This document shows, piece after piece, positions 8,566 through 38,470 of a DNA stretch of 44,532 nt. The DNA comes from an uncultured Candidatus Poseidoniales archaeon (lineage in GTDB: Archaea > Thermoplasmatota > Poseidoniia > Poseidoniales > Thalassarchaeaceae). The notes beneath the pieces were generated by a model. The model saw nothing but the letters and a program-made list of their open reading frames with translations. It was not told the DNA's origin and made no database searches. Made by a program: the position numbers and the translations under genes. Position 1 is the first letter of the stretch, and every line of letters starts with the position of its first letter. The stretch covers positions 1 to 44,532 of the forward strand of contig CAZXZO010000014.1 in NCBI GenBank assembly GCA_964645485.1, given 5' to 3'.

Positions 8566-8732
8566 TACTATCACTGATTGCGATTAGTTTCCAATAATTA
8601 TAGTTAGCAGTATCTCTGTTGTGATGGTTTTGTCAGGATAATCAAAAAAACCTATTCTACATCAACTCTCAAGTCGGCGGGATTCTTGAATAGTGGTGGC
8701 TAACTTGCGTCACTACCGGAGGGGGTAATTAG

Positions 8733-20858: not shown

Positions 20859-21854
20859 TCAATCAATTTTTCTTCGAACAAGAGCACCCAATAAAAGTGT
20901 GATAAAAACCGCACCTGGCCATAAAGGAGTCAAATTTTTTGAGATGATATCTCCTTCACCCGATGTATTACCATCGTTGTTTGATTGCTCATTCCCATTA
21001 GAGGAGTCACCTCTGTCTTCAACAATGCTAAGGGTGCTTTCGTCAGAGTCAGCGGTTTGTGACCTTCCAGCATCCACATCTCCCCTCGATTGAATTGATA
21101 TTTCAATTACACAGTTCTTAGTTGGGTGGCTGTCAGATGTTGTAATATTGAGTATTTGAGTTAAGTTCTGGCCCATTTCGATAGCCACACCTTCAAGTTC
21201 TTCTGCACCTCCAACATCAAGGAGGGGACATGAATCAGTGACAGTCACTTTGTGAACTGAATCAACAGCATTACCTGCGTTTGTTACTGATACTTCTAGA
21301 GAACTAGTTGTGCCGGCATTTAGTGGTCCACTAGATTCTGATAAATCGATAGTTAAATCCACAACCATTGGAATAGTCACATTCCCCTCGCCATCCTTCG
21401 AATCACCGCCAGATGTGAGTGGCGATCCGGAATATCCGGTAACAGTGCCAGTTACAATGAAACGGTCACTTTGGCTTGCAGCAAATGCTGCGACATCAAT
21501 TTGCTTGATTGTGAAATCAAACGATTTATTGGTTTGAGCACTGACTTCTACTGAATCAGGTCCGTTTGCCGAACCGTCAAAAGGTATGTCAAATTCTATG
21601 TCAAGAGTAATAGCAGCCATGTTTTGGTTATCAATCCAAAATTTCACACTCACTTCCCCATCCAACCCAAGTTCAAAGATCGGTTCAGTGTCTTGTGGTG
21701 TGTCGATACCCATTTCCCACCCGGCTGGAATATCAGGGAGGTCCTCTTGTGCTGTGGCTGAGATTGGCATCATCGCCAACACCAGTATCAAGGTCAGAAG
21801 TTTGGCTCGCACATTCACTTCGATACACTCCTCATTGTTGAAACCGTCGCTCAC
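20859..21854 (-). CDS. Secreted, C-terminally anchored surface protein with two Ig-like domains
   Basis: Signal peptide RAKLLTLILVLAMMPISATAQ, beta-rich body (VSVTNAGNAVD), Asn/Gly/Ser linker, terminal LWPGAVFITLLLGALVRRKID. ATGA overlap with the upstream FAD-subunit stop. Confidence 0.75.
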   Translation of the reverse strand: MSDGFNNEECIEVNVRAKLLTLILVLAMMPISATAQEDLPDIPAGWEMGIDTPQDTEPIFELGLDGEVSVKFWIDNQNMAAITLDIEFDIPFDGSANGPDSVEVSAQTNKSFDFTIKQIDVAAFAASQSDRFIVTGTVTGYSGSPLTSGGDSKDGEGNVTIPMVVDLTIDLSESSGPLNAGTTSSLEVSVTNAGNAVDSVHKVTVTDSCPLLDVGGAEELEGVAIEMGQNLTQILNITTSDSHPTKNCVIEISIQSRGDVDAGRSQTADSDESTLSIVEDRGDSSNGNEQSNNDGNTSGEGDIISKNLTPLWPGAVFITLLLGALVRRKID

Positions 21855-22831
21855 TCATGCATAATTTGATTCAAACATCGCCTGGCTAATACTTTCACCA
21901 TTTTACGGCGATAATTTGGCTTTAATCCGGTATTGTTTACGGGTTTTATTGATTTTCGAAGAGATTCGGAAAGAATCTCAATACTTTCTTTTCCACTCCA
22001 TCCCGGCAGCACTGCTGCAACTTCTTCATCGTGAACCCGTGGAATTGATTCTAACCCGGTTGAAGCAATTTTGAGAGTTGATATTTCCTCTCCATCAAGT
22101 TTCCATGCAGCAGCGATTCCAGCTTCTGGGAAATCCCAAGATTCCCGCAATGTCAACTTGTGGTAACAGCCAGTCAATTCAGAACTTTCAGTTGGTAGAG
22201 TTATGTGAGTAACTAATTCGCCTGGTTGTAAAACGTTTCTTGTCATACCGTCTAACTCGAAGAAATCAGAAAGAGGCATCTCTCTTTTTCCACTTGAGGA
22301 AGCGAGGTGGATTGTTGCATTTAGGCATAATAATGCAGGCGCTAAGTCAGCCTGATAGGTAGCAACACACAGTGTATTTTGGTTTGGAATTACTCGGCAG
22401 TCTGCATCAGTACCACATTCACATTTGTGGCACCATTCAATAGATTCGCGCCAATCTTCTGATTGGTTAAACCAATAACAACGAGTATCCAAGCATAGAT
22501 TTCCTCCAACAGTGCCAGAACGGCGAATCATGACTGAAGCAATACTCCCAGCAGCATCTTTGAGTAATGGATGGGTGAGATTGCTCTGGGCTAAATCGTG
22601 TAATCTAACCATTCCACCGATATGAGTTGAAGACAACTCACTCATTTCAGCAACTTTTGCGAGTGAGATGACATTCGCTTTTGGATTAAGATGCCATTTG
22701 TAATTTGGAATTAAGTCGGTTCCACCTGCAATCCAATCAAATTCTTCACCTGCGGCAATAAATTCACCGGCTAAAGCCAAAGCCTGCTCAAGGCTGGTTG
22801 GCATCAGCAACTCAAATGGCGGCATTCTCAT
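21851..22831 (-). CDS. hcrB: Molybdo-flavoenzyme FAD subunit with [4Fe-4S] insert, 4-hydroxybenzoyl-CoA reductase beta-like
   Basis: IAGGTDLIPN, GTVGGNLC, Cys-rich insert DTRCYWFNQSEDWRESIEWCHKCECGTDADCRVIPNQNTLCVATYQADLAPAL (Thauera HcrB as recalled: DTRCIFYNQSEWWR...C..C..CYATYHGDVAPAL), KLTLRESWDFP. The symbol names the closest family; activity is unproven. Confidence 0.8.
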   Translation of the reverse strand: MRMPPFELLMPTSLEQALALAGEFIAAGEEFDWIAGGTDLIPNYKWHLNPKANVISLAKVAEMSELSSTHIGGMVRLHDLAQSNLTHPLLKDAAGSIASVMIRRSGTVGGNLCLDTRCYWFNQSEDWRESIEWCHKCECGTDADCRVIPNQNTLCVATYQADLAPALLCLNATIHLASSSGKREMPLSDFFELDGMTRNVLQPGELVTHITLPTESSELTGCYHKLTLRESWDFPEAGIAAAWKLDGEEISTLKIASTGLESIPRVHDEEVAAVLPGWSGKESIEILSESLRKSIKPVNNTGLKPNYRRKMVKVLARRCLNQIMHE

Positions 22832-25605
22832 GCATCATCACCTCGGTGTCTTCGTTCAGTGTGCTTCCAGGCCGAACCGGCTAAGCGAGGATTGTCAATA
22901 TAGTCTTGAGGTGGGATTACAGAAACTTTCCAATCATCAGATTGTTCATCAGCAGGCATGGTTGCGGTAAATCCGAATAAAGCCCCATTATGGTATGGTT
23001 CAATATTGTCATCATTGCGTCTAGCAATGTCACGCTGTTCATGCTCTCCAGCCCGTTTTGCCAGTGAATCTTGGAGATGTGAGAGTTTGAGTCTTGGTGT
23101 TTCTAACTCAAGTGGGTCTGAGATACCTTGCTCTTTGCATAATTTTTCGATGTTTTTGTGCATCCTGTCCGGTGTGATTGGTAACTCATTGACTCTTACG
23201 CCAATTGCATCATACACCGCATTACACACTGCTGGCAGAATTGGTAGAAGTGGGCCTTCACCTGCTTCTTTTGCTCCGAATGGACCTTCTGGGTCATTGC
23301 TTTCTACAATGATTGGGTAAACCTTTGGCATTTCATGCACGGTTGGAATCTTGTAATCTAACAGATTCGCATTCAGAAGATGTCCGGTTCTACCATATAC
23401 CATCTCTTCAGATAGTACTTGGCCTAATCCCATATGGCAACTGCCAATTATTTGTCCTTCGACTGCCAATGGATTCAGCGCTTTTCCACAGTCGTGTGCA
23501 GCCCAGACGTTGATGACGCTTGTTTGCCCGGTTTCAACATCCACTTTCACCTCGGCAACATATGCTGAAAATGAATAAGCAGGTGCCAATCCAGCGGCTG
23601 CTCCTTTGTGGGCTCGTCCCATCGGTGGAGTTCTGTATGCTCCTGATGCAACTAGCGCACCTCGTTCTTCCTGTGCTTTGTGAAGCGCTTCAAGATAAGA
23701 GACACCGATAGCAGGATCTCGTTTATCGTAAATCCTGCGGTCACCCAAAACTAATTTTTCAGGGTCTCCACCGGTGATAGTAGCGGTAGCATCTAGCAAT
23801 TCTTGACGGATTTTCATTGCTGCCGAAATTGCCGCGTTTGCGTTCATGAATGTCACTCTGCTAGAATATGAACCAAGGTCAACAGGAGAAGTATCGGATT
23901 CTTGTGAACGAACTCGAATCATGTCTAATGGTAGTCCCAATACCTCAGCAACAGATTGAGCAACAACTGTGTCAGAACCCTGTCCAATATCAGCGGCTCC
24001 GGTATGAATTGTTACACCGCCATCCATGTCAATTTTCAGGTGAACAGTTGCATGAGGGAACTTGTTTGGGTCCCAATGAATCGGTAAACCGCTTCCTGAA
24101 ATGAAGAAACCACAACCAACTCCAATGCCATGGCCTAATGGCAGTTTGCGAAATCGCTCATCCCAATTTGAGGCTTTACGCACTTTTTCTAGACATTCTC
24201 TCATCCCAGTACTAGTGATTCTAAAACCCGTGATAGTTGCACTTAGGGGTGGTAACAAATTGGCTAAACGGAACGTCATTGGGTCAACCTGAAGTTTGTC
24301 GGAGAGATCATCTAGTCCTACTTCGAAGGCACAGCGTGAGTTAACAGCGCCATGTCCGCGCATGGCCCCACTGGCAGGCTTGTTTGTCCAAACTCGGGCA
24401 CCGGTGTAATGGAATGCTCCAATCTCGTAAGGTGCGGTGTGAAGAACCCCGTTGTAGTAAGTTGTAACGTGACCGAATGAAGCGAAAGCACCCCCGTCAA
24501 TCAAAGCATCAGTTTCAACTCCGCAGAGACGCCCCTGTGAATCAGCGTGAAGATTCATTTCAATGTGTGAAGGGTGTCTACCTCGATTAACGAAGAAAAC
24601 CTCCTCTCGGTCAAATGTGATTCTTACAGGGCGCCCTGATTTACGTGCTAATATTGCCGCACACATCTCATGTGGGAAGGGGTCAGACTTGCCTCCAAAT
24701 CCGCCACCTACAAACGTTCTATAGACGTTTATTTGATGCATGGGGATTTCTAACACATCAGCAAGTGACCGATGCAAATAGTGCGGCACTTGTTGTGGCG
24801 TATAGACTGTCAATCTCCCTCTTGGGTCCCAATTTGCAACGGTTGCATGTGGTTCTGTAAAGCCGTGGTTAACACCACGGAAAGTCCAATTTGAATGATG
24901 AGACGCTTCCGCATTTTCCGTCATTTTTTCTACTTCGCCAAATTCTTGGAATACCCGCTTTTGGATATTTGCTTCACCAATGTGATATTTACCGCGGTCA
25001 TGAATTGGGTTTTCACTATCTTCCAATCCATCTTTCATATCGTGAATGCTGTCTAATACCTCGTATTCAACCTCAATGAGTTGCAGCGCTTGCAATGCTG
25101 TAGATTCGTCTTCTGCGGCGACAGCTGCCACTAAATCGCCAACATGGCGAACTAAACTGATTGCTAAGGCGTGTTCATCTTTTGTGACTGGTAATACGCC
25201 GAAGGCATTTTTTGCATCAACTCCCGTTGCAATAGCAACTACGCCGTCAAGTGCTTCTGCGGCAGAGGTGTCAATTGATTTTACACGAGCAAAATGGTGT
25301 GGTGAGCGAAGAATTTTTCCAATTAACTCGTTAGATAATCGAATATCATCGCCATATTTTGCTTGCCCTGTAACTTTGTAGCGCCCATCAATCAAAGGTG
25401 TTCTAGTGCCGATTGAAGTACTTGTAACTAGTTCATCGTGGCGGTGAGTGCCCCATGGTTGAGCCAACTTTCCTCCTTGGCTCTTAGGTATCTTTCCTTC
25501 ATCTTGAAGGCTACTGAATTGGTCTTTACCGCCACTACCTGGGCGGGCAAATGGCAATTTCCCGGGCTGCTGCTTGTACCCGACCATTTCCTCTTCGTCA
25601 GTCAT
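22828..25605 (-). CDS. hcrA: Molybdopterin-binding large subunit, 4-hydroxybenzoyl-CoA reductase alpha-like (xanthine oxidase family)
   Basis: IGTRTPLIDG..KVTG.AKY, FGVLP, QVPHYLH, VGGGFGGK, GAMRGHG, ISGSGLPIHW, PHATVHLKIDMDGGVTIHTGAADIGQGS, DLGSYSSRVTFM, KALNPLAVEGQ, GPFGAKEAGEG. RBS AGGTGAT. The symbol names the closest family. Confidence 0.8.
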   Translation of the reverse strand: MTDEEEMVGYKQQPGKLPFARPGSGGKDQFSSLQDEGKIPKSQGGKLAQPWGTHRHDELVTSTSIGTRTPLIDGRYKVTGQAKYGDDIRLSNELIGKILRSPHHFARVKSIDTSAAEALDGVVAIATGVDAKNAFGVLPVTKDEHALAISLVRHVGDLVAAVAAEDESTALQALQLIEVEYEVLDSIHDMKDGLEDSENPIHDRGKYHIGEANIQKRVFQEFGEVEKMTENAEASHHSNWTFRGVNHGFTEPHATVANWDPRGRLTVYTPQQVPHYLHRSLADVLEIPMHQINVYRTFVGGGFGGKSDPFPHEMCAAILARKSGRPVRITFDREEVFFVNRGRHPSHIEMNLHADSQGRLCGVETDALIDGGAFASFGHVTTYYNGVLHTAPYEIGAFHYTGARVWTNKPASGAMRGHGAVNSRCAFEVGLDDLSDKLQVDPMTFRLANLLPPLSATITGFRITSTGMRECLEKVRKASNWDERFRKLPLGHGIGVGCGFFISGSGLPIHWDPNKFPHATVHLKIDMDGGVTIHTGAADIGQGSDTVVAQSVAEVLGLPLDMIRVRSQESDTSPVDLGSYSSRVTFMNANAAISAAMKIRQELLDATATITGGDPEKLVLGDRRIYDKRDPAIGVSYLEALHKAQEERGALVASGAYRTPPMGRAHKGAAAGLAPAYSFSAYVAEVKVDVETGQTSVINVWAAHDCGKALNPLAVEGQIIGSCHMGLGQVLSEEMVYGRTGHLLNANLLDYKIPTVHEMPKVYPIIVESNDPEGPFGAKEAGEGPLLPILPAVCNAVYDAIGVRVNELPITPDRMHKNIEKLCKEQGISDPLELETPRLKLSHLQDSLAKRAGEHEQRDIARRNDDNIEPYHNGALFGFTATMPADEQSDDWKVSVIPPQDYIDNPRLAGSAWKHTERRHRGDDA

Positions 25606-25620
25606 GCAAGTATCACCTGA

Positions 25621-26199
25621 CTATGCGTCTTCTCCCATAAAACCAGGGTGTGGGTCGGAATGTTGGGAAGTGGGGTTTTCGGTTGATTCCCCATCACGAA
25701 TTATCTCAGCGGCCGCTTGAATCGATTCAATAATCGGCTGATAGCCTGTACACCGGCAGAGGTTTCCTTCTATTGCAGTCTTTATCTCAGCCTCAGTAGG
25801 ATTAGTATTTTCGTTTAGAAGTGCAGTTATCACAATTAAAAATCCAGGGCTACAAAATCCACACTGGCTTCCACCGTAGGTTGTAAAAGTCTCTTGGATA
25901 GGTGAGAGGTGGTGTCCGTCTGCGATTCCCTCTACTGTGGTTATTTCACAGCCTTCAACTTCGCTGGTAAGTGTCAGACAAGAAAGTCTTGGTTCACCGT
26001 CCACAAGAACTGCACAACATCCACAAGTGCCCATGTCACATCCTCTCTTCACTCCAAGCATGCCGATTTGGTCACGCAGTACATCTAGAAGAATCGAATC
26101 ACTTGAAATTGATTCAGTGACCTTCTTTTCATTGACAGAAGCAATCCATTCTCGCTTACCTGCTTGAGGCAACATTGGAATACGGTTTGGCTCTGACAT
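25621..26199 (-). CDS. hcrC: 2x[2Fe-2S] small subunit of the molybdoenzyme (HcrC/CoxS-like)
   Basis: KRGCDMGTCGCCAVLVDG..RLSC, QCGFCSPG, GNLCRCTGY. Confidence 0.88.
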   Translation of the reverse strand: MSEPNRIPMLPQAGKREWIASVNEKKVTESISSDSILLDVLRDQIGMLGVKRGCDMGTCGCCAVLVDGEPRLSCLTLTSEVEGCEITTVEGIADGHHLSPIQETFTTYGGSQCGFCSPGFLIVITALLNENTNPTEAEIKTAIEGNLCRCTGYQPIIESIQAAAEIIRDGESTENPTSQHSDPHPGFMGEDA

Positions 26200-26303: not shown

Positions 26304-27971
26304 TTATGTTCTTACAGATACAGATTCATAATCCTCTTTTCCAGTAAGTGGTTCAACCCAATCAGGGTCTGCAGGAAGAACCAGCCCCTGTCCAATTTTA
26401 TTGAGTGTTTCAGCCAAACTTTTCTGTTCCTCGGTTAATTCATCCCATGGGATTTCGCCTCTGCGCAATCTTTTCCACTGTTTTAGAGTACCAATTGAAC
26501 GTACAGACCGGGCCCAGAGTACAAGGTGAAGGCGAGCTGAAACAGACCATAATGGCATCAGTATGAAAGCCAATAATATCCAATTTATTTTTGTGACATA
26601 TGGTTGTATAAGTGGTAATAGTCCATACAAATTTAGATTCCAGAGTGGGCTAGCAGGAGCGGCAAGTAAAAACGCCACTGGAAATGAAATCAAAATCCAC
26701 CAAATTGGAAGTAATGCGAAGCCCATGACAATTTTGTGAGTGCCAAGTGTGTGATTCTCTTTAAGAGACATTTTAGCGGCAATCGGGCCAGCAAGACGGT
26801 ATGGTGGCCATGAACCGATTAGTGCACCCCAAGTTATGAGTCCAGCCATGAAAATCCAAGAACCGATGATTTGGAAGACAGCAGAAATCAAATCGATTGT
26901 GCCCGGCCTTTTATCTCGATCATACAACTCGTGTTCTTTGAGATTATATTTATCCATTTTTTCAGCATGAGCGCTGACTCTTGACTTCAGGTTGACCGCT
27001 TTGTCTGGTTGATGTTCAGACAACCATAGCCATGCAGCACGAGTGCGTCTAGCGCCCATGACTGCTTCTGCATATGTTGCTCCTGTTTTTCGACCCAGCA
27101 TTCTATTTCGATGTACAGAAAGTAAACCTCTAGCCCTCCAAAGCAGTTTTCGGTCCTCCCACGTGTCAAGTCCTTGGCTACTTCGTTGCAGTTCAGTACC
27201 TAGAGATTCAGTTACTGAATTTACCCATGCTCGTTGTGCCGCAATATCTGCTCCAAACTCTGAGATTGCTTCGTCGCTAGCAACAGGGGCCCCTTCATCA
27301 CCGGGAAGAGGTGGCAATCTCATCGGTTGATGAACAGAGACCAAGGCTCTCTCTCGAAATCGATTGGCATCTGAATAGTGTAGGCCAACAGGGACTAAAG
27401 AAGGTGGTTCTTCACCACTTTCACGAGCCTTAATTAATGCTTTCAACATTATTCTAGCAGGGCCTGTTTTGGTCTTTTGTGGTTGACTCATTAGGTGTGA
27501 AATACCTTCTGGATAAATAGCACACCAACCACCATCAATGAGTACATCAGACAGTGTATCAATGAGGCCACTATTCCCACCAGTTGTTGATTGTTCCGAA
27601 TCACCTGAGGGGGAGATGTCTTGCTTTCTATAGACAGGTTTTGCGCCAGCCGCACGCATGAATTGACCTAGGATAGGTGTTTTGAATAGGGTATGTTTTG
27701 CAACGAACGTCATTTGTCCTGGCAACAATGAGAGCATCAATAATGGGTCTATCAAAGATGCTGGATGCCAAGCCGCGAAAAGGACTCCTCCTTTTTTGGG
27801 AATACACTCTTCATGGACAATTCCGTGCTCCCTAAACCAAGATGCACTAATTTGCCTACACAGCCATCGAATTATGCGATAAACTAATGGTAATCGCTTC
27901 ACATCATTACCTCTGCTTGGATTGGCAACGTGGGGCGTTAGGCAATATGTTGTTCCCTGCATTTCACTCAT
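26304..27971 (-). CDS. Glycerolipid acyltransferase (LPLAT superfamily, HX5D type) with C-terminal TM region
   Basis: Block I WHPASLIDP, block II FVAKHTLFK...GAKPVYRKQD, block III AIYPEGISH, block IV LVPVGLHYSDANRFRERALV. GTG 27902 (MKRLPLVYRII) is an alternative start. Confidence 0.88.
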   Translation of the reverse strand: MSEMQGTTYCLTPHVANPSRGNDVKRLPLVYRIIRWLCRQISASWFREHGIVHEECIPKKGGVLFAAWHPASLIDPLLMLSLLPGQMTFVAKHTLFKTPILGQFMRAAGAKPVYRKQDISPSGDSEQSTTGGNSGLIDTLSDVLIDGGWCAIYPEGISHLMSQPQKTKTGPARIMLKALIKARESGEEPPSLVPVGLHYSDANRFRERALVSVHQPMRLPPLPGDEGAPVASDEAISEFGADIAAQRAWVNSVTESLGTELQRSSQGLDTWEDRKLLWRARGLLSVHRNRMLGRKTGATYAEAVMGARRTRAAWLWLSEHQPDKAVNLKSRVSAHAEKMDKYNLKEHELYDRDKRPGTIDLISAVFQIIGSWIFMAGLITWGALIGSWPPYRLAGPIAAKMSLKENHTLGTHKIVMGFALLPIWWILISFPVAFLLAAPASPLWNLNLYGLLPLIQPYVTKINWILLAFILMPLWSVSARLHLVLWARSVRSIGTLKQWKRLRRGEIPWDELTEEQKSLAETLNKIGQGLVLPADPDWVEPLTGKEDYESVSVRT

Positions 27972-28012
27972 TAATATTGAAGGTAAGGTTCATCCCGAAC
28001 ACCGGCTTCAGG

Positions 28013-28025
28013 CCCCTACAAGGGG
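28013..28025 (+). promoter_or_regulatory. Short hairpin (5-bp stem, 3-nt loop) overlapping a purine-rich RBS-like tract
   Basis: CCCCT-ACA-AGGGG, 6 nt upstream of ATG 28032. Confidence 0.3.
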
Positions 28026-28031
28026 ACTAAG

Positions 28032-30836
28032 ATGACGAACAAAAATATGGTTTTAATTGTGGTTGGAGTGATGCTAGCTGCATTCAACGTAGGAGTAGTG
28101 GGGACAGTGGCAACTGGTGCCGTAGATGGAGCGGTTCAATCTGCTTTTCAGACCTATACCAAAGACACAATTTGCGCCAACGATGATTGCTCAGAAGTGA
28201 ATGAGGATTGGGCGACATCTACCAGCGAGCGCTCTTATTACGCGTGGAATCTTTCGAATTACGATGAAATCAAAAATGATCCATTGGCAACACCAGAGTT
28301 TGAACAGGTTGGTCCTGTAGTTTATGAGATAACTGCTGAGCGAACTTTGGTTGAACACGATGCTGAAGAAGGCACTATTTCCTACTCTGAAATAAAGACA
28401 TATTCGTGGGCGGGAGGTACTCCGTCAAATACAGAAATCACAAATCTCAACATTTTGTTTGAGCCTCAAAGAGTTGGCGCAACTTCGACATTTATCGGAA
28501 TCGTTGCTTCCATGACCCAAGCAGGATTTGCTGCTGGAATGATTGAAAACGATATGGAAGTAGGGGTTCCTAGCAAAAGAACAGCAAATGATTTGGATTC
28601 AACATTAGATGAATTGGCAACCACTCTATCTAACGAGCAAATCGCTAGCAAAACAATGGCAATGCAGGCTTATGCAACTTGGAATGCTTCCTCAGAAGCT
28701 TCCGCAGTTTACAACATGACATTAGTAAATGGCAGCGACCCAACAGTAAACACATGGTCCGACCCTGATTTTTCCGCTGGTTTGGAATTTGCTTTCCGCC
28801 AAGCGGTAGACCCAGGTGATTCATCGGTGAAAATTTCACTTGATAGCAAGTGGGGTCCAGCAGTATTCATGGGGATTGGAACACCAGGAAATTCAATTTC
28901 CGATTTGATGAGTAACCCTGAAACTAATCCGTCTATGGTAAGAGCGGGTTTGTTTGGTTATTTAGCAATGCAAAATGCGACAATTCCTGACTTTGCTGAA
29001 ACTTTTGCCCGTGACCAAGCAATGTACGCTCTAGTCGGTTCATCTTTTGCCAGCAACGGTGGAGGGGATGCAAATTGGGAAGATGATATGGATGAAGTTG
29101 AAGACCGGTTCTACGAAGTATCGGGCTCAAGAATATCAAATCATGATTCACTTAATGACCTTCTTTGGGGGATGGATGGTGATACCCCGCGAGGTATTTT
29201 AGTTTCCGATTCAGGTGGTTTGATGTGGGGTCTAGGCCTACTTTTATCCACTGCTCTTGAAAATCCATTTGCAGTAATGTTCGATTACAACATCGGTATT
29301 TCTGACGTGTCAAATATTGGTGCCTATGGAGGAGGTTGGTTACTGGGAGAAACAGACCACCCGCTAATTTTGAGCGGGGGTTCGGGGACATTAAACTCGA
29401 CAGAATACCTCTATGCTCAGTTCGCTGGGCCAGACCCATTAACCGGGTATTTTGCTAGTGCTAGCCTTAATGTTGCAGGCATGTGGGGTTCGTTTATTGG
29501 CAATACTTACGGCGTTTCTGGAGACGATGTCATTCTGAATTATTCACAAGTTGACAACATTTTATTTGGTCCTATGGGAATTTCAACTGATGCTGTAGTT
29601 GGATTCCTATATGGTGAAACAACTGGACATTCGTTACCAGTTAATCCCGCGACTATGATTCCTGAAACTGGTGGGGTTGAACTTGAATGGACCACTGATT
29701 TAGTTTCTCAATTGTATGGCATTGACGAGAATAGTGCTGCAGCACTTCGTTACTTTGTTCATAAATTGATGTTCAATACGCAAATTCCAAATCTGCTTGG
29801 AAGCATGTTTGGTGAAGAAGCAACAGGATTCCCTGGAGCGACAAAATGGGTTTCTCATACTGTTGACCAATGGTTATTCGGCTGGAGAGATCCTTTGATG
29901 GCTCAACTTGAAGGCAGCCCTACAAATTTGACCTATGGGTGGCAATCTCTTGAGACAAACAAGACTTACTTCGGCTCAGCATCAGAACACGCGCCGAATG
30001 GGGTATCAACCGGTAGTGGGACGATGTACAAGGTGTGTAGTGGGGAAAACCCTCAGTGTGACACGGGGGAGACTCTCGAACAAGACGGGTCGACTTACCT
30101 CCCTTGGCGTACTCCTGAGAATGAAGATGGTACATTTGGTGTAATCACCAATGAGTCCTTGGTTGGTACATCTGGTGGTTTTATCACAGGTGAAGGCGAT
30201 TTGTTGAATTTAGGTGATTATGCAATTTGCGCGCCATTGCAGCAAGCAGATGGAGACCATCTTGGTCTTCTGACTGAAACTTGGACTTGCCACCTCGATA
30301 GCAATGAGAGATTGATTCAAGGCAAATTGATTAATTCTAAGTCTGCACTAGATATTTTCCCTGGTGCGGTGCCAGTTTATTTCGGTGGAGATGTTGAATT
30401 AAAGGTTCAACCGACTGCTAGAATTATTGTGTCAGGTTCTTCTGAGAGTTATTTCTATGTTGATCTAAGGACAATGGAAGAGCAATCATCTTCCACGCCC
30501 GAAATCAGTGACATGCAAGTCATTTTCAAGATTGAGTCTGGCGGAGGTGCTGATGCAGAAACCGTGGCGCTGATGCAGTCTCAAATTGTTGATAACCAGA
30601 ATCAATTTACTTACTGGACTAACTTTGATACCGATGGTGGTTCTTTCTTTATTGACCAAATAACTGCAGTAATTTACCTGAGTGCAATCGGATTAATGCT
30701 GATGGGTGTCTTGGGAATCATTCGAACTGGCCCAACTCAAAGCCCGGCCCTTGGTTCTGAGGATGAAGGTTCAAGGACAGAAAAGGCCGATGCTGTTGAC
30801 GATGATTTACTGAATCAAACCGGTGGAGAGTTCTGA
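28032..30836 (+). CDS. CD36/SR-BI/LIMP-2-family-like membrane glycoprotein (two terminal TMs, large extracellular domain with a long insertion)
   Basis: N-terminal TM (about residues 6-30) and C-terminal TM (about 878-898). Colinear motifs SYYAWNLSNYDEI (68-80), EQVGPVVYE (91-99), GTISYSEIKTY, ITNLNI (136-141), VSHTVDQWLFGWRDPL (607-622), TMYKVCSG (664-671), DGSTYLPWR, LVGTSGGF, VELKVQPTARII (788-799). Nine N-x-S/T sequons between the TMs. Confidence 0.65.
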   Translation: MTNKNMVLIVVGVMLAAFNVGVVGTVATGAVDGAVQSAFQTYTKDTICANDDCSEVNEDWATSTSERSYYAWNLSNYDEIKNDPLATPEFEQVGPVVYEITAERTLVEHDAEEGTISYSEIKTYSWAGGTPSNTEITNLNILFEPQRVGATSTFIGIVASMTQAGFAAGMIENDMEVGVPSKRTANDLDSTLDELATTLSNEQIASKTMAMQAYATWNASSEASAVYNMTLVNGSDPTVNTWSDPDFSAGLEFAFRQAVDPGDSSVKISLDSKWGPAVFMGIGTPGNSISDLMSNPETNPSMVRAGLFGYLAMQNATIPDFAETFARDQAMYALVGSSFASNGGGDANWEDDMDEVEDRFYEVSGSRISNHDSLNDLLWGMDGDTPRGILVSDSGGLMWGLGLLLSTALENPFAVMFDYNIGISDVSNIGAYGGGWLLGETDHPLILSGGSGTLNSTEYLYAQFAGPDPLTGYFASASLNVAGMWGSFIGNTYGVSGDDVILNYSQVDNILFGPMGISTDAVVGFLYGETTGHSLPVNPATMIPETGGVELEWTTDLVSQLYGIDENSAAALRYFVHKLMFNTQIPNLLGSMFGEEATGFPGATKWVSHTVDQWLFGWRDPLMAQLEGSPTNLTYGWQSLETNKTYFGSASEHAPNGVSTGSGTMYKVCSGENPQCDTGETLEQDGSTYLPWRTPENEDGTFGVITNESLVGTSGGFITGEGDLLNLGDYAICAPLQQADGDHLGLLTETWTCHLDSNERLIQGKLINSKSALDIFPGAVPVYFGGDVELKVQPTARIIVSGSSESYFYVDLRTMEEQSSSTPEISDMQVIFKIESGGGADAETVALMQSQIVDNQNQFTYWTNFDTDGGSFFIDQITAVIYLSAIGLMLMGVLGIIRTGPTQSPALGSEDEGSRTEKADAVDDDLLNQTGGEF

Positions 30837-31128: not shown

Positions 31129-33432
31129 ATGAAGAGAATGAAAATAAAAGTAATGTTGGTAGCCTTTACCATGGTAACTTTAGCGTCTGCTGGTTGCCTT
31201 GGTGGAGACAGTGATGATGTAAAGGATGATGTAATTGATGATGTTGAACCAGAGGCTGTAAATATAAAAATCGGGTTGTTAAACCCGGTAACTGGTCCAA
31301 TTGCTATTTATGCTGATGGTTTTACTGATGCAGCAAATTTAGCAATAAGTGAACTCAATGCTGCTAATGATGACTATGAGTTTGAACTTGTAGTTGGAGA
31401 TTCAGGTTGTGATGGCACAGCCGCAGCAACAGCTGCTCAATCCTTAGTTGACGCAGGAGTCGTTGGAATTGCTGGTGCTGCATGTTCAGGCGCCACTCTT
31501 GGCGCAATTGCAGTCGCTAAAGCAGCAGGAGTCCCTATGGTCTCCTACGCAAGTACTTCACCAGCAGTAACTACTGCTGATGATGATGGACTATTGTTCC
31601 GTGTTGTGCCAAGTGATGCACAGCAATCTGTTGCACTTGCAACTGTTGTTGCAGGCAGCGGAGCAACTAACCCAGCAGTCATTGCAATGACCAATGATTA
31701 CGGGGCAGGACTAGGAGACAACTTCAATGCAAGTTGGTCTGGTGACTTGTGCACAAAAGTTGGTTATGACCCAACAGAAGGCTCCTACGATGCCGCAACT
31801 CTAGCTCAAGCAGTTATCGATGCAAGTTGTGACTCAGTTGTGCTGATGTCATATGCAACAGATGGTGCAGCGATCATGGAAGAATTACATGCTCAAGGGT
31901 TCAGTGGGGCCGTATTCGGGGCAGATGGACTTGCAGACTCAGCATTCGGTGATACTTTCACCGACTTAGGTGCTCTTGATGGTCTAGTTGCAACCAAGCC
32001 ACGACCGGGTGCTGCATCCGATGCTAAGGCAAATTTCGAGGCAGCCTACGAAGCAGCTGGGGGTGATGCTGGTGGAATTTATACACACGAAACTTATGAT
32101 GCTGTGAATATTGTTGCAGCGGCTGCAATGCTCGATAGCAGTGACATGAAAGCAAGTCTTGCAACTGTTGGTAGCAACTATGATGGTGCGTCTGGCCAAC
32201 ACACATTTGATGCAAATGGTGATGTTTTAGGTACAGGTTACTCAGTCTGTGGATTCGTTCTGATGGGTGACACAATGGGCTTCTCTTGTCCCAATATGTG
32301 GACCCAAGATGCTGGTATCGCAGCAGCACCCTTTGAAGGTACAACAATCAAGATTGGATTACTAAGCCCACAAACCGGGCCAATTGCAGTTTATTCGGCA
32401 GGTTTTGATGCAGCAGCAGCAATTGCTATTTCTGCTCTAAACTTGGTAGATGCAGACAATTATCAATTTGAGTTGGTTATCGCCGATTCTGGTTGTGATG
32501 GCACTCAAGCAGCAACCGCTGCTCAGACATTGATTGACTCTGGTGTTGCAGCAATTGCTGGAGCAGCATGTAGTGGTGCAACTCTAGGTGCAATTGCTGT
32601 GGCAAAGGAAGCAGGAATTCCGATGATTTCCTACGCTTCTACTTCACCAGCAGTTACCTCTGCTGATGACAACAACCTACTATATCGTGTAGTTTCAAGC
32701 GATGCTCTACAAGGGCCTGCAATTGCAGATGTAATCAAGGCAGGTGGACACACCAATACTGGAATCATCTACATGACTAATGATTATGGTGCAGGTCTAT
32801 ACGATGCGATTGGAGGTGCACTGGATTCAACTTGCACTTCCACTGGTTATGACCCTACAGAGGGTTCGTACGATGCAGCAAGCCTTGCTCAATCAGTAAT
32901 TGATGCCGGTTGTGATTCAGTTGCTCTAGTATCATACGCAACTGATGGTGCTGCAATTGTTGAGGAACTTTCAGGTCTTGGATTCACCGGTGCAATATTT
33001 GGTGCTGATGGAATCGCTGATGCAGGATTCATCTCAGAATTCACAGATAATAGTACATTGTCTGGAGTAACAGCAACCAAGCCAGCATCTGCTGCAGATT
33101 CAGATCGCAGACTAGCGTTTGATGCAGCATGGGCAGCTGGTGGAGGTCCTGAAGGTGCAATTTACACGCACGAGACTTTCGATGCAGTTCTCATTGCAGG
33201 ACTGGCGGCGATGGCGATGGATTCAACAGCCGAAATTACCGACATGCCTACAGCCTTGTCACTAACCGGAATGAACTTCGATGGTGCAAGTGGTATTCAT
33301 TCATTTGATGCAGCAGGCGATGTCGCTGGTAACGGCTATGATGTCTGTTCGTTTGGTCACGATGGAGCAGATGCGTCATTCAGTTGTAGCCAAACCTGGA
33401 CTCAAGATGGCGGAATTGCTGACAACTCCTGA
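31129..33432 (+). CDS. Lipid-anchored ABC substrate-binding protein, branched-chain amino acid (LivK/LivJ) family, tandem duplication
   Basis: Lipobox LASAGCLGG. Two copies of IKIGLL.P.TGPIA...DSGCDG...IAGAACSGATL...SYASTSP...RVV.SDA...NDYG.GL...YTHETY/FDAV, 361 aa apart. Confidence 0.92.
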   Translation: MKRMKIKVMLVAFTMVTLASAGCLGGDSDDVKDDVIDDVEPEAVNIKIGLLNPVTGPIAIYADGFTDAANLAISELNAANDDYEFELVVGDSGCDGTAAATAAQSLVDAGVVGIAGAACSGATLGAIAVAKAAGVPMVSYASTSPAVTTADDDGLLFRVVPSDAQQSVALATVVAGSGATNPAVIAMTNDYGAGLGDNFNASWSGDLCTKVGYDPTEGSYDAATLAQAVIDASCDSVVLMSYATDGAAIMEELHAQGFSGAVFGADGLADSAFGDTFTDLGALDGLVATKPRPGAASDAKANFEAAYEAAGGDAGGIYTHETYDAVNIVAAAAMLDSSDMKASLATVGSNYDGASGQHTFDANGDVLGTGYSVCGFVLMGDTMGFSCPNMWTQDAGIAAAPFEGTTIKIGLLSPQTGPIAVYSAGFDAAAAIAISALNLVDADNYQFELVIADSGCDGTQAATAAQTLIDSGVAAIAGAACSGATLGAIAVAKEAGIPMISYASTSPAVTSADDNNLLYRVVSSDALQGPAIADVIKAGGHTNTGIIYMTNDYGAGLYDAIGGALDSTCTSTGYDPTEGSYDAASLAQSVIDAGCDSVALVSYATDGAAIVEELSGLGFTGAIFGADGIADAGFISEFTDNSTLSGVTATKPASAADSDRRLAFDAAWAAGGGPEGAIYTHETFDAVLIAGLAAMAMDSTAEITDMPTALSLTGMNFDGASGIHSFDAAGDVAGNGYDVCSFGHDGADASFSCSQTWTQDGGIADNS
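31762..32876 (+). repeat. Diverged internal direct repeat marking the binding-protein duplication
   Basis: GGTTATGACCCAACAGAAGGCTCCTACGATGC (31762) vs GGTTATGACCCTACAGAGGGTTCGTACGATGC (32845), offset 1083 nt. Confidence 0.85.
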
Positions 33433-33463
33433 ACGTAGGTTCGAGAAAACAGTGAAGGTTTGC

Positions 33464-33491
33464 CTGTGGCGAGTCTTAGGGCTCGCCACAG
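33464..33491 (+). terminator. Strong stem-loop after the binding-protein gene (terminator or mRNA-stabilising element)
   Basis: CTGTGGCGAG-TCTTAGGG-CTCGCCACAG, perfect 10-bp stem followed by TTT, between the SBP and permease genes. Confidence 0.6.
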
Positions 33492-33697
33492 TTTGCATTC
33501 CTGACAATTTGAGGGATACCTTTAGCATCGCCAATGCCTTGACAAGAAGTGTGAAGAATGGTGGTTGACATCTCAAATTGTTCACTTAGGCCAAGTAGGT
33601 GTGTGTTGAAGAGATGATTAGTGGTATCCTAGAGTATCGCGACATAATTATCACAACTGAACTGAGCGAACTTGTTGATTAGGAAGTGGTGTAGCCA

Positions 33698-36600
33698 GTG
33701 GAATTCGATGAAATTCGCCAAAAATGGGCCTCAATTCCGAGTTTGCATAAGCGAATTACTTTGAGCCTTTTATTATTATTTGACGCTTATCTTGGCCTCA
33801 GTCACCATCAGGGATTAATTGCTTGGTCTTCACTATTTGTGGGCGACTTGGTTTGGATTCTGCAATCAGCCGAGATGATAATTGGAGGATCTTTGGTTAT
33901 CCATACGATGTTCAAAGAGACGACTGGTAAGTTGCGGATGGCCTCTATTGCCTCCTCTCCCATCTTGTTAATTGCCCTGATTTTGGTAACGCTTCAACTG
34001 CTTATCTCGGGTCTTGGCTTTTCTTCAACATTGAACTATAATCTTTCTTCAGTGGGTCTTTCAGGACTTTATTGGGCAGCAGCATATCTGTGCATCGCGG
34101 TAGGTCTAACACTTACGTACAAGGTCCAGAGGTATGGGAATTTTGCTCAAGGAGAAATGATGCTAGTAGGGGGATATGTGGCTGTTACATTGATGTGGTC
34201 TGACAGATTTTTTGAGATGTCAGATGCCCCGATGGATGATGTATTACAATGGGATTTGTTGATATCGGCAGCGGTGGCTGCCTTTTTCTTGGTAGGATTC
34301 CTTGGAATTTTTATCGACAAATTGATTTATCGTCGGTTCCGCGATAAATCAGCATCGCCCCAAGTAATGATGATCGCTTCCTTGGGTGTGGCGATGATAT
34401 TGCGAGCCCTGCTTTATCTTCGATACAGTGCTCGCACTTTCCGATTTGTACCTGATAGAGATTGGAAATCATCGGATGCACGAATTCAGATTGGCACAGA
34501 GAGATTACAGATTCATCTAGGTGAGAGAGGTGATTCACCACTTTGGGAGTTTGCACAAAATGTTTCAGATTATGGCTTTGCATACACAAAAGCAGCACTG
34601 ATTGTTGGGGTATTTGGTTCGGTACTTTTCCTCTTATATTTCTGCCACAAAACCAGACTTGGAAGACAAATGAGAGCGGTTGCAGATAATCCTGATTTAG
34701 CCGCATCTAGTGGTATCAACGTTGAGCGCATTCATTCGTTGAGTGCTTTTCTGTCAGCAGGATTGTCTGGTTTTGGCGGAGCATTACTTGCCGCTGTTCT
34801 GCCTATCAATCCTGAGTTGGGTTTGTCTCTACTATTACCTGCTTTTGCAGTGATAGTGTTAGGCACAATCGGTTCTATTCCTGGTGTCATTATTGGGTCA
34901 TTGATTGTAGGTCTAGTTAGGTCCTCTTCTGAGCCAATTTTGATTGGTGCGGGAAATACTCTTAATCGGCCAACGGCAACAGGATTCGCTGAAGTTATGC
35001 CATTCATTTTCTTGATAGCGGTTTTACTTCTGATGCCCAAAGGTATCGGCGAAGGCATGGAAAATTGGAAAATTGAACGACTGAGGAAACGGCAAAAGAA
35101 AATTGACGAAGGAGTACCTAGATTGCGTGACCGTTACGCACCCATTGGAATTGTATACGGTGGTATTGCCAGCATAGATAAAATGAGGATAAAAGCATCG
35201 TCAAAATTTGACCCTTTTGTCACTCTCAAAAACAAATCTGTTGAGGCGTTTGAGACTCATAGTTCTGCCATTTACTTGAAGGCAACAGCAGTCAAGCGCA
35301 GGCTCTTTAATTTGCCAAAGTCATCATTACAAACGGTGGCATCAAAGTTTGATGTTATTCGCAGTCGGGTTGATGATCATCTTCCGTACGGCCGTGAAGG
35401 AACGCGTGGTTCGTGGGTTACTTTCGTTGTGCTTTTCTTGTTAATGGTGCTACTCGCCTGGGCTCTTCCGAGTGTTAGTTCTTTCACAAAAACTATGCAA
35501 ATAGCGCGCCTAATCACGTTGGTTGCAATATTTTCTCTGATGGCGTTTTCTCTGAACCTTCACACAGGAATCACAGGAATGACCAATTTTGGAGTGATTT
35601 TCTTCGTCGGAATCGGCGCGATTACTGTTGGATTATTGTGTGCACCAGTGGAGACAAATGGATATGGATGGGAACCGTGGAAAGCCACTCTGCTCGCCGT
35701 TGGTCTGGCTGGATTGGCAGGTTGGATGTTGGCATATCCTACCGCTAGATTACGAATGGATTATTTCGCAATCGTGACAATATCTCTTGGCGAAATGTTA
35801 CGCATTTCTTTACAAGCTGAGCCAATGTTACGAGCGGGAACTGTAACTTCTGCAATTGGAATTTCACAGTACACATTACCTCTAGAATCATGGTGGGATT
35901 CTGGAATCTCTTCAACTGTTGGAGGCTGGCTTGGATTTGATGAAGCGGCTCCTTACATTGTATTATTAGCCGTATTATCTACAATATCAATCGTTGTAGT
36001 ATGGTGGCTATTAGAGACCATTTTGGCATCCCCTTGGGGTCGCATTCTCCGTTCGATTAGAGAAGATGAAGAGGTCAGTCAACATCATGGACACAATGTA
36101 CTCACCAACAAAGCCGCTAGTTTGGCTGTTGGAGGAGCCATTGCCGGTTTAGCAGGTGCACTTTGGGCATGGTTAAATTCAGGTATATTCCCTGATTTCT
36201 TGAATCCAGTTCGTTCAACTTTCCTTGTTTGGGCTGCATTTATCGTAGGAGGCAGAGGGAATAATCGGGGAATGATAATTGGTTCTTTCATTATTGTGAT
36301 AACTGAATTTGTCTTTAATGTCATGGTAGTGGCTAGGGGTAATTCTGACCTCGCTTTCCATGACATTGTTGCTAATATCGACCAAGTATTTTCTTGGGTA
36401 GTGGTCGATATTGGTGGATTTATTTGGTCAGACTTGTCGATTTCTCAAACATTTCCAACAGGTAATGTAATCGCAGAATTGGCATATATCAAATTGGGAT
36501 TAATTGGCTTAGTAATTTTAGTTTCATTGATGTTGGCTGAGAAAGGGCTTGTTCCAGAAGTACCGTTGAGGCCAACTCGTCCTGATATGAAAAGTGATAA

Positions 36601-36805
36601 TCCTCTTTTGGCAAACAAAAATAAGTCCGAAAACAAGGATAATGAGGAGCAATCTCCACAAGACCCCGATGAAGTCCTTGATGAGCAAGACAACGAGTCT
36701 GAAAACTCCTCACAACCAGAAATTGAGGATGAAGACGGGCAATCCCCAAAAAATCCGAAAAAGAAGGCCAAGAAATCATCTAGACAAGGGAGTGATGGGA
36801 AATGA
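33698..36805 (+). CDS. livHM: Fused LivH-LivM branched-chain amino acid ABC permease
   Basis: LivH part: AVGLTLTYKVQRYGNFAQGE, TRLGRQMRAVADNPDLA..SGIN, FAVIVLGTIGS. LivM part: NLHTGITGMTNFG, RLRMDYFAIVTISLGE, SPWGRILRSIREDE, WAAFIVGGRG. One continuous 1035-aa frame. Confidence 0.9.
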   Translation: MEFDEIRQKWASIPSLHKRITLSLLLLFDAYLGLSHHQGLIAWSSLFVGDLVWILQSAEMIIGGSLVIHTMFKETTGKLRMASIASSPILLIALILVTLQLLISGLGFSSTLNYNLSSVGLSGLYWAAAYLCIAVGLTLTYKVQRYGNFAQGEMMLVGGYVAVTLMWSDRFFEMSDAPMDDVLQWDLLISAAVAAFFLVGFLGIFIDKLIYRRFRDKSASPQVMMIASLGVAMILRALLYLRYSARTFRFVPDRDWKSSDARIQIGTERLQIHLGERGDSPLWEFAQNVSDYGFAYTKAALIVGVFGSVLFLLYFCHKTRLGRQMRAVADNPDLAASSGINVERIHSLSAFLSAGLSGFGGALLAAVLPINPELGLSLLLPAFAVIVLGTIGSIPGVIIGSLIVGLVRSSSEPILIGAGNTLNRPTATGFAEVMPFIFLIAVLLLMPKGIGEGMENWKIERLRKRQKKIDEGVPRLRDRYAPIGIVYGGIASIDKMRIKASSKFDPFVTLKNKSVEAFETHSSAIYLKATAVKRRLFNLPKSSLQTVASKFDVIRSRVDDHLPYGREGTRGSWVTFVVLFLLMVLLAWALPSVSSFTKTMQIARLITLVAIFSLMAFSLNLHTGITGMTNFGVIFFVGIGAITVGLLCAPVETNGYGWEPWKATLLAVGLAGLAGWMLAYPTARLRMDYFAIVTISLGEMLRISLQAEPMLRAGTVTSAIGISQYTLPLESWWDSGISSTVGGWLGFDEAAPYIVLLAVLSTISIVVVWWLLETILASPWGRILRSIREDEEVSQHHGHNVLTNKAASLAVGGAIAGLAGALWAWLNSGIFPDFLNPVRSTFLVWAAFIVGGRGNNRGMIIGSFIIVITEFVFNVMVVARGNSDLAFHDIVANIDQVFSWVVVDIGGFIWSDLSISQTFPTGNVIAELAYIKLGLIGLVILVSLMLAEKGLVPEVPLRPTRPDMKSDNPLLANKNKSENKDNEEQSPQDPDEVLDEQDNESENSSQPEIEDEDGQSPKNPKKKAKKSSRQGSDGK

Positions 36806-37587
36806 AGGAAGACAACATCGCTCTTAAAGTCTCAAATCTGACAAAAGATTTCGGAGGTTTGCGGGCTGTAAATGATATTTCTTTTGAGGTTGCGAAGGGT
36901 GAATTTGTTGGACTCATTGGGCCAAATGGCTGTGGGAAATCTACAACATTCAATTGCATATCTGGTTTACTTGAACCTACTGCGGGTCAAATTGAGGTGT
37001 TCGGACAAGATGCAGGGAATCTTAGACCTGACGAAATCCAAAGGCTTGGACTGACGAGGACTTTTCAACATACAAGATTGTGGAAAGAGATGACCGTGAT
37101 AGAGAATTTGCTTGTTCCACCGCGGCAGCAATTTGCTCCTAATCCATTAATTTCATTGATGAAACCCCGTTCAAGAAAGGCAGAAAAGGAACGCCTCATT
37201 GATGCTTTTAGTGCCTTAGATATGTTGGAAGTACCACACATGGCGGACAATCTTGCCAGTGAATTATCTGGTGGACAGAGTAAACTAGTGGACATTGGGA
37301 GGTCTTTGATGGGTGCTCCTCAAATTTTACTTCTTGACGAACCTGTTGCTGGGGTTGCCGGGCCTCTTGCGGAGAAGATATTTGGGAATCTGAGAAATTT
37401 GGTCACAAAAACTGGTATCAGTATTTTTGTGATTGAACACAATATGGATTTTATTTTACGGCGTGGTGTTGATAGGATAATTGTCATGGACCAAGGCGGG
37501 ATTTTGATGCAAGGAACACCTGATGAAGTGAAAGAAAGTAGAGAAGTTGTTGAGGCTTACCTCGGTGGCGGTGGTGAGCAAGAATGA
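36802..37587 (+). CDS. livG: Branched-chain amino acid ABC ATP-binding protein
   Basis: FGGLRAVN, GPNGCGKST, GLTRTFQ, LSGGQSKLVDIGR, LLLDEPVAG, IEHNMDF; ATGA overlap with the permease. Confidence 0.93.
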   Translation: MKEDNIALKVSNLTKDFGGLRAVNDISFEVAKGEFVGLIGPNGCGKSTTFNCISGLLEPTAGQIEVFGQDAGNLRPDEIQRLGLTRTFQHTRLWKEMTVIENLLVPPRQQFAPNPLISLMKPRSRKAEKERLIDAFSALDMLEVPHMADNLASELSGGQSKLVDIGRSLMGAPQILLLDEPVAGVAGPLAEKIFGNLRNLVTKTGISIFVIEHNMDFILRRGVDRIIVMDQGGILMQGTPDEVKESREVVEAYLGGGGEQE

Positions 37588-37754
37588 TTCTAGTCTCAAC
37601 AAATCATCGTTACTTTAGCACCGGCTGTGGCCCGTATGATTTCCATCAGAAAACTGAGTATTTTGATGCCACGGCACAGATTTCAAGTCATTATATTGAT
37701 TCTGAGGCAGCAAAAATAATCCAATCAAGAAATTGGAAGGAGGTGAACATTTGA
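37584..37754 (+). CDS. Putative 56-aa microprotein filling the livG-livF gap
   Basis: Manual translation MILVSTNHRYFSTGCGPYDFHQKTEYFDATAQISSHYIDSEAAKIIQSRNWKEVNI. ATGA overlap with the livG stop and TTGA overlap with the livF start. Below the 60-aa ORF-track cutoff. Confidence 0.4.
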   Translation: MILVSTNHRYFSTGCGPYDFHQKTEYFDATAQISSHYIDSEAAKIIQSRNWKEVNI

Positions 37755-38470
37755 CTCGATTATTGGATGTTCAAGGCCTTGAAGGTGGCTACGGTTCTGT
37801 GAAAATTTTGAACGGAGTCGATTTACATGTTGAAAAGGGTGAATTTGTTACTATTATCGGACCTAATGGTTGTGGTAAATCAACTTTCATCAAGGTGTTG
37901 TTTGGCATCGCAACTCATTATACAGGTACAGTAATGCATGAAGGCACGAATGTTTCAGCATGGAGGACAGACCGGTTAGTAAAGAGAGGTATTGCTTATG
38001 TCCCACAAGTGGAGAATGTGTTTCACACCCTAACAGTTCATGAGAATTTGCAGATGGGTGGCATCGGTTTAGGTGTAGGTGTCCTCGAGGAAAGAATTGA
38101 GCGGACGTTTGAGATGTTTCCCGACCTAAAACCCCGGGTTCACGATTTGGCTGCCTCACTTTCAGGAGGTCAACGCCAAATGTTAGCGCTTTCAAGGGCG
38201 TTGATTTCTGACCCACAATTATTGCTGCTAGATGAACCGACAGCGGCGTTGTCACCACTTTATCAAGAGCAAATAATTGAGCGAATTGATGCCTTGCGCC
38301 AGCATGGAATTACGGTATTGATTGTTGAGCAAAATGCTCGACTCTCATTGGCTCGTTCTGACCGTGGATACATCATGTCTGGAGGTGAAATTGTTCATAC
38401 CGGAACGGCAGACGATTTACTAAATGACCCAGATATTGGTAAATATTTCCTAGGAATCAAGGATGATTAA
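37751..38470 (+). CDS. livF: Branched-chain amino acid ABC ATP-binding protein
   Basis: GGYG.VKILNGV, GPNGCGKST, GIAYVPQ..NVF..LTVHENL, LSGGQRQMLALSRAL, LLDEPTAALSP, IVEQNAR. TTG 37751 follows the perfect RBS GGAGGTGA (ORF track starts at 37733). Confidence 0.93.
   Translation: MTRLLDVQGLEGGYGSVKILNGVDLHVEKGEFVTIIGPNGCGKSTFIKVLFGIATHYTGTVMHEGTNVSAWRTDRLVKRGIAYVPQVENVFHTLTVHENLQMGGIGLGVGVLEERIERTFEMFPDLKPRVHDLAASLSGGQRQMLALSRALISDPQLLLLDEPTAALSPLYQEQIIERIDALRQHGITVLIVEQNARLSLARSDRGYIMSGGEIVHTGTADDLLNDPDIGKYFLGIKDD

Follow-up and report, generated by a model that had tools for sequence, protein, structure and literature searches.

The window analysed here (44,532 nucleotides; contig CAZXZO010000014.1 of assembly GCA_964645485.1, from an uncultured Candidatus Poseidoniales archaeon of the Thalassarchaeaceae) contains on its plus strand an uninterrupted ATG-to-TGA reading frame at positions 28032-30836, which encodes a protein of 934 amino acids (aa; P0001). 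The source assembly comprises 1.94 Mb in 55 contigs and is 82% complete with 0% contamination. Poseidoniales (Marine Group II, MGII) are uncultured and outnumber all other planktonic archaea in surface waters. A first-pass annotation of the sequence had assigned the protein to the CD36/SR-BI/LIMP-2 family, i.e. the class B scavenger receptors (SR-Bs), which play key roles in lipid uptake, immunity and lysosome biology. Our analyses agree with this assignment, and we consider it nearly certain that the gene is a native, although very divergent, archaeal member of this family.

The protein shows the hairpin topology of the CD36 family that had been proposed for it, with a transmembrane (TM) segment at each end, short tails and a large ectodomain (Table 1). 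Only two stretches gave Kyte-Doolittle windows above 1.6, aa 4-31 and aa 872-899. The predicted protein thus has an N-terminal tail of 6 aa, an ectodomain of ~840 aa and an acidic C-terminal tail of 36 aa, with a membrane orientation deduced from the sequence, and its N-terminal helix probably acts as a signal anchor without being cleaved. The ectodomain is strongly acidic (13.5% Asp and Glu versus 3.7% Lys and Arg) and contains ten N-X-S/T sequons. All 22 homologues share N643-K-T, and 18 of them also have the sequon at N73. Furthermore, the cysteine pairs 48/53 and 669/676 co-vary; both are present in 16 homologues and both are missing in six, which is the pattern expected for disulfides. 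The ectodomain is probably N-glycosylated and disulfide-bonded. Mammalian and insect SR-Bs contain three conserved disulfide pairs in their ectodomains (PMC10715195). The end of the C-terminal tail, DDDLLNQTGGEF (aa 921-934, window 30792-30833), is kept in the four nearest homologues only. It resembles an acidic dileucine motif, like the sorting motif of LIMP-2, which in an archaeon is probably a coincidence.

The motifs quoted in the first-pass annotation, namely YYAWNLSNYDEI...FEQVGPVVYE (aa 69-99), ITNLNI (aa 136-141), VSHTVDQWLFGWRDPL (aa 607-622), TMYKVCSG, DGSTYLPW and LVGTSG (aa 664-715) and VELKVQPTARII (aa 789-800), were all found and are colinear. Two of their proposed human counterparts were checked by HMMER, and both blocks align to LIMP-2: the first block was paired with 'FYFFNVTNPEEILRG..PRVEEVGPYTYRE' and the WLFGW block with 'VTHTVDELLWGYKDEI'. 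The alignment of the N-terminal beta-strand segment (aa 40-151) covers LIMP-2 residues 39-100. Compared to the Pfam profile of the family (PF01130), the whole protein reached 59.9 bits (E 2.1e-16, in two stretches) at a curated cut-off of 26.5 bits, and aa 1-145 alone still gave an E-value of 2.9e-12. The matched stretch aa 40-162 corresponds to profile positions 23-140. Every homologue scanned matched PF01130, six further ones with 52-65 bits. A phmmer search of PDB sequences with the single protein returned nothing and a family profile was required; the profile of 22 archaeal homologues matched the PDB chains of LIMP-2 and CD36 (HMMER, E 1e-4 to 5e-4).

An exhaustive search of 1.84 billion representative proteins with the archaeal profile revealed 303 matches. 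The full-length matches (E <1e-100) were archaeal, and those with an organism name all belonged to Poseidoniales. The first non-archaeal matches followed at E ~1e-10 and were eukaryotic CD36 proteins of Dracoamoeba and Acytostelium and two marine metatranscriptome proteins. Aligned to these four by hhalign, the archaeal profile reached a probability of 99.1 and an E-value of 7e-19, colinear over 602 columns, and the homology therefore spans the whole ectodomain and extends beyond one motif. Analysed by parts, the N-terminal part gave E 6e-19 and the C-terminal barrel E 1e-4. The WLFGW(R/H/E)DP block and the barrel residues are the best-conserved part of the archaeal family.

These results are supported by the predicted structure. 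A template-free AlphaFold model (predicted local distance difference test, pLDDT, 71; predicted template modelling score, pTM, 0.58) contains beta-strands at aa 62-139, exclusively helices at aa 143-600 and beta-barrel strands at aa 606-839, i.e. an asymmetric antiparallel beta-barrel with a helical apex. The insert limits suggested beforehand ('about 142-605') agree with the helices of the model. The first 13 PDB matches found with Foldseek were all LIMP-2 or CD36, and the structural alignment covers aa 37-850. According to the model, the ectodomain would be a CD36 asymmetric beta-barrel in which a hypertrophied, all-helical head replaces the three-helix apex. Pfam, the PDB profile matches, hhalign and Foldseek hence agree on the family, and a chance similarity was rejected.

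The all-helical head (aa 152-600, ~450 aa) is located at the apex, accounts for about half of the ectodomain and is inserted between PF01130 profile positions ~140 and 148. Residues 446-600 are kept in all archaeal homologues aligned, short forms included, and natural forms of 609-635 aa exist without 284 positions of aa 152-445. One short form (619-621 aa; L018:9224-11089 and L039:3001-4857) is the positional orthologue in the congeneric genome G282, where its locus has the same acyltransferase, HTH_10 and 1337-aa neighbours as in the window. This indicates that the head module of ~290 aa is dispensable and that it was gained or lost as a whole within the genus. Among closer homologues, identity amounts to 56-87% in the head and 65-91% in the barrel; where a head is present, its rate of evolution is close to that of the barrel, which reveals no obvious diversifying pressure on it. 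The head had no family or cluster match in Pfam and the ESM Atlas feature search, and the comparison of the conserved archaeal apex with the apex inserts of amoebozoan CD36 proteins was not significant (hhalign E 0.19). Lineage-specific helical expansions of a 'labile apex' at alpha4-alpha5 have been described in a survey of SR-Bs across Eukarya (PMC10715195). Judged by their sequences, the archaeal and protist expansions are probably independent or have diverged past recognition.

Table 1 Features of the CD36-family gene and its upstream region. Positions refer to the window; residues refer to P0001.
Feature	Position	Strand	Evidence or remarks
Whole gene	28032..30836	+	934-aa CD36-family (PF01130) two-pass membrane protein, P0001
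N-terminal TM helix, aa 7-29, behind 6-aa cytoplasmic tail	28050..28118	+	Hydrophobic windows aa 4-31; model helix aa 2-27
N-terminal CD36 beta-strand segment, aa 40-151; YYAWNLSN, GPVVYE, ITNLNI	28149..28484	+	Pfam, LIMP-2 alignment, hhalign, model strands
Variable helical apex module, aa 152-445	28485..29366	+	Alignment gaps in P0018-P0020; all-helical in model
Conserved helical apex module, aa 446-600	29367..29831	+	Invariant columns G452 to L589; helices in both models
C-terminal CD36 beta-barrel part, aa 601-860; holds VSHTVDQWLFGWRDPL and N643-K-T sequon	29832..30611	+	HMMER, hhalign, model strands
C-terminal TM helix, aa 872-898	30645..30725	+	Hydrophobic windows aa 872-899; model helix aa 872-898
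Acidic cytoplasmic tail, aa 899-934 (36 aa), ending in DDDLLNQTGGEF	30726..30833	+	D+E 25%
Divergent intergenic region, 60 bp	27972..28031		AT-rich TTAATATT box ~55 nt upstream of ATG; GGGG run directly before ATG
555-aa PlsC-type acyltransferase, divergently transcribed	26304..27971	-	Pfam PF01553 E 1e-13

Of the 94 other Poseidoniales genomes sampled, 77 contain PF01130 (33/36 and 44/58 in the two families of the order), some of them in two or three copies. It was detected in none of 306 other Thermoplasmatota genomes from ~50 other families. A scan of species genomes revealed 184 relatives. Among the best 80 of these 184, every name is Poseidoniales, Thalassarchaeaceae, Poseidoniaceae or Poseidonia, and the closed MG-II chromosome CM001443.1 is one of them; the window's own family comprises Thalassarchaeaceae-type records. 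No relative was found in a scan of viral contigs, a metagenome scan contributed three loci only, and the four eukaryotic long forms, used in a word-index homology search, retrieved nothing besides the query itself. In a small tree of 13 archaeal and four eukaryotic proteins, computed in quick mode with few outgroups and without genera g4-g9 of family f1 and three loci of family f2 (motif filter), the archaeal sequences grouped together and were roughly sorted by family. The G+C content of the gene is uniform with its surroundings, its neighbours on the contig are of archaeal type (type II dehydroquinate synthase (DHQS), HTH_10 regulators and a MoxR/DUF58 cluster), and it is syntenic in related metagenome-assembled genomes (MAGs) of congeners. 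Together with the occurrence in 77 of 94 genomes and on the closed chromosome, these observations exclude eukaryotic contamination and bear out the archaeal origin that had been proposed. Recent transfer is also excluded because no eukaryotic protein is close.

A CD36-like fold has been published for the actinobacterial proteins LmcA/PgfA (PMC8972800; PDB 7N3V and 7SHW), and their family PorA/DUF3068 (PF11271) is said to be exclusive to actinobacteria (PMC9678360). We detected PF11271 in 64 of the 306 non-Poseidoniales Thermoplasmatota genomes, where the matching proteins are ~750 aa long and show as many as three domain matches in tandem (e.g. L124-L129). It is absent from the source genome of the window and from 94 of 95 Poseidoniales genomes including it (0/36 and 1/58 of the others with a match), so that the distributions of PF01130 and PF11271 within Thermoplasmatota are complementary. 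The window protein itself has no PF11271 match, and the archaeal CD36-type profile showed no significant similarity to the PorA-type proteins of Thermoplasmatota (hhalign E 0.06). Compared with E 7e-19 for eukaryotic CD36, this indicates a true PF01130 member and not a PorA-type protein that merely touches the CD36 model.

A 1.86-Mb ENA contig contains a divergent CD36-family paralogue of 730 aa (P0065; L037:8001-13311), which matches PF01130 with E 4e-16 and in addition shows a weak PorA match. P0065 heads an apparent operon with an ATP-binding cassette (ABC) ATPase gene, which it overlaps by 8 bp, and a gene for an FtsX-type permease of 808 aa. This permease is 55% identical and orthologous to the one encoded at 5428-7875 in the window (compare window 5428-8574), and both permease genes have a DeoC-DHQS-GHMP-chorismate synthase block at their side. 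The gene order of the P0065 operon suggests a CD36-fold protein that may work with a MacB/FtsX-type transporter. A search of 121 sampled genomes with P0065 as query revealed no close orthologue, and at the 100 other loci examined the CD36 gene has neither an ABC nor an FtsX gene as neighbour.

The 60-bp region upstream of the window's CD36 gene presumably contains its promoter and ribosome-binding region, based on the sequence elements listed in Table 1. It separates the gene from the divergently transcribed acyltransferase gene, the product of which also shows a weak TIGR00530 match below the cut-off. This adjacency is confined to near relatives and was found at 4 of 20 and at 15 of 80 loci. 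Within the order, the CD36 gene occurs in three unrelated neighbourhoods: one comprises the acyltransferase and a molybdoenzyme cluster, another TctA and a PLD/PhoX protein, and the third Trm1 and an AIR-synthase-like gene. The idea of a conserved operon was rejected, as acyltransferase, molybdoenzyme cluster and amino-acid ABC cassette adjoin the gene in near relatives only. The molybdoenzyme cluster (window 20859-26199) is of the xanthine-dehydrogenase/CO-dehydrogenase type, with MoCoBD large, 2Fe-2S and FAD subunits, and in near relatives it accompanies both the acyltransferase and the CD36 gene. Between the CD36 gene and an HTH_10 regulator lies an ABC uptake cassette of the branched-chain amino-acid type (window 31129-38470) that contains unusual fusions: one protein of 767 aa combines two periplasmic-binding domains, and the permease has 1035 aa. 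As the CD36 gene of several relatives is followed directly by the regulator and the 1337-aa gene, the cassette appears to be inserted. The 1337-aa protein (window 39235-43248) has no Pfam or NCBIfam match and is a conserved neighbour at 16 of the 80 related loci. In other genera of the Thalassarchaeaceae type, a TctA-type transporter gene precedes the CD36 gene, and a gene for a 1526-aa protein with a lamin-tail domain, a PhoX phosphatase domain and two PLD-like domains follows it on the same strand (L024:11742-16322).

Regarding its function, the best overall explanation in our view is a CD36-family protein that mediates lipid transfer between the outside and the membrane through a tunnel, to which we assign a probability of roughly 0.55. 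Tunnel, ligand and transport direction are proposed by analogy with CD36, SR-BI and LIMP-2. For the last two, namely inward transport of long-chain fatty acids or other lipids, the odds appear about even. The protein would be anchored in the cytoplasmic membrane by one helix per end, with an exposed ectodomain. On the outside, its head would catch a hydrophobic ligand, for which long-chain fatty acids or other lipids set free by phytoplankton and particles are the most likely candidates, and the barrel interior would hand this ligand to the outer face of the membrane. The delivered ligand would feed beta-oxidation and possibly PlsC-type acylation. Transport of lipids or sterols through a tunnel, which the first-pass annotation named as a property of the family, is proposed for this protein from its family membership.

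Lipid transfer is favoured because the barrel is the most constrained part of the protein, because the source genome contains five acyl-CoA dehydrogenase genes and one gene of the AMP-binding acyl-CoA synthetase type, because MGII genomes indicate lipid degradation and because a PlsC-type acyltransferase gene lies head-to-head with the CD36 gene. In particular, MGII genomics infers the degradation of fatty acids and lipids and the presence of PlsC homologues (PMC6962369). Moreover, proteins with the CD36 fold bind lipids in animals and mycobacteria (PMC8972800, PMC9678360). With regard to a possible uptake of carotenoids for rhodopsin, Bac_rhodopsin and Blh had no match in the 82%-complete genome, but the controls matched nowhere either; the genome contains two SQS_PSY genes.

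Several observations weigh against this explanation as a whole. No CD36 match was found by Pfam in the last 345 aa alone (aa 590-934); this C-terminal half is too divergent for Pfam, and its assignment is carried by the profile-profile and fold evidence. The structure-based identity to the solved receptors is only 15-18%. As no known apex is related to this one by sequence, the ligand specificity of the animal receptors is not transferable. No neighbour is conserved order-wide, which leaves the operon evidence for lipid uptake weak. Finally, PgfA, the only experimentally studied prokaryotic protein of this fold that we found, traffics lipids outward (PMC9678360).

The latter leads to the possibility that the same fold serves the opposite role in envelope biogenesis or lipid homeostasis. 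Lipids of the cell itself or lipid-linked glycans would then be carried by the protein between membrane and S-layer space, and a membrane transporter might deliver or receive them, as for mycobacterial PgfA/LmcA with MmpL3. The operon of P0065 with its ABC ATPase and FtsX-type permease is in line with such a role, but it was seen for this one divergent paralogue only, without a close orthologue or a comparable gene pair at the other loci, and the window protein is far nearer in sequence to eukaryotic uptake receptors than to PorA/DUF3068. Outward trafficking is a serious rival, but we regard it as unlikely. Slightly less likely still is a surface receptor or adhesin without transport function, in which the head would bind particles, algal cells, vesicles or viruses and the barrel would act as a stalk. 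In animals, a wide range of macromolecules binds to the apices of CD36-family proteins, and lineage-specific ligand sensing has been proposed as the background of the apex expansions in eukaryotes (PMC10715195). A head that makes up about half of the ectodomain and comes and goes as a 290-aa module between congeners would suit this role. However, the head evolves at about the rate of the barrel, and the barrel, including WLFGW(R/H/E)DP, is best conserved, which indicates that the barrel itself is functional. An artefact, i.e. contamination of the MAG or similarity without homology, to which the concentration of the Pfam match in the first 120 domain residues and the unmatched C-terminal 345 aa might point, is highly improbable given the archaeal genes on the contig, the same locus in congeners, the 77 of 94 related genomes including a closed chromosome, and the distance of the nearest eukaryotic proteins (E ~1e-10 versus <1e-100 for full-length archaeal matches).

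Within the preferred reading of lipid transfer, it may be speculated, with considerable doubt, that the CD36 family is neither an invention of eukaryotes nor restricted to them, and that this ancient branch has been a core MGII surface protein since the ancestor of the order and the main portal for exogenous fatty acids into the membrane. The branch would then have arrived through a transfer between domains very long ago or through descent shared with the prokaryotic CD36-fold proteins. If this were true, fatty acids would feed beta-oxidation as well as PlsC-type ester-lipid synthesis. To our knowledge, no classical archaeal lipid signature has been found in MGII, and such a portal could help to explain why it is missing.

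The first-pass annotation had further regarded the family as eukaryotic, without any described archaeal member. A pan-eukaryotic SR-B survey covers Eukarya only, makes no mention of prokaryotes and places at least one ancestral SR-B in the last eukaryotic common ancestor (PMC10715195). In full-text literature combining CD36 or PF01130 with archaea, Euryarchaeota, Poseidoniales or MGII, we found no paper describing an archaeal member, which agrees with this part of the claim, and the papers searched regard the family as restricted to eukaryotes. The restriction to eukaryotes is less strict, as the fold of LmcA/PgfA is published and databases already attach PF01130 to archaeal proteins; the ESM Atlas automatically names clusters 'CD36 family protein'. 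An order-wide archaeal branch changes the taxonomic frame of the CD36 family and makes strongly diverged natural versions of barrel and apex available for structure-function work. It is relevant both to how the family evolved and to marine archaeal ecology, and it offers a concrete, testable candidate for the acquisition or handling of lipids by Poseidoniales, the ectodomain of which is expressible without culturing the organism.

Among known systems, the vertebrate class B scavenger receptors, i.e. LIMP-2/SCARB2 (PDB 4F7B, 4Q4B, 4TW0, 5UPH), CD36 (5LGD) and SR-BI, are the reference for PF01130. Their apex is a three-helix bundle, whereas the archaeal apex comprises ~160 aa in the short forms and ~450 aa in the window protein. 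The archaeal protein also differs in its own cysteine pattern, its strongly acidic ectodomain and its low identity (15-18%), and it occurs in a host without endocytosis or lipoproteins. LmcA, in contrast, has a predicted signal peptide and one C-terminal TM segment and is devoid of a helical bundle, while the window protein has a TM segment at each end and a head. The best non-archaeal matches to the archaeal profile are long SR-Bs of protists with expanded apices, namely the amoebozoan Lmp-type proteins of Dracoamoeba (P0186) and Acytostelium (XP_012755139.1, P0193) and the marine metatranscriptome proteins P0195 and P0196. With 744-791 aa, they contain an insert of ~300 aa at the same profile position (~140 to 148), but their Pfam CD36 scores are far higher (199-271 bits for three of them and 88 bits for P0196, versus 60 bits here). 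A possible functional analogue is the bacterial outer-membrane protein FadL, a barrel that passes long-chain fatty acids towards the membrane.

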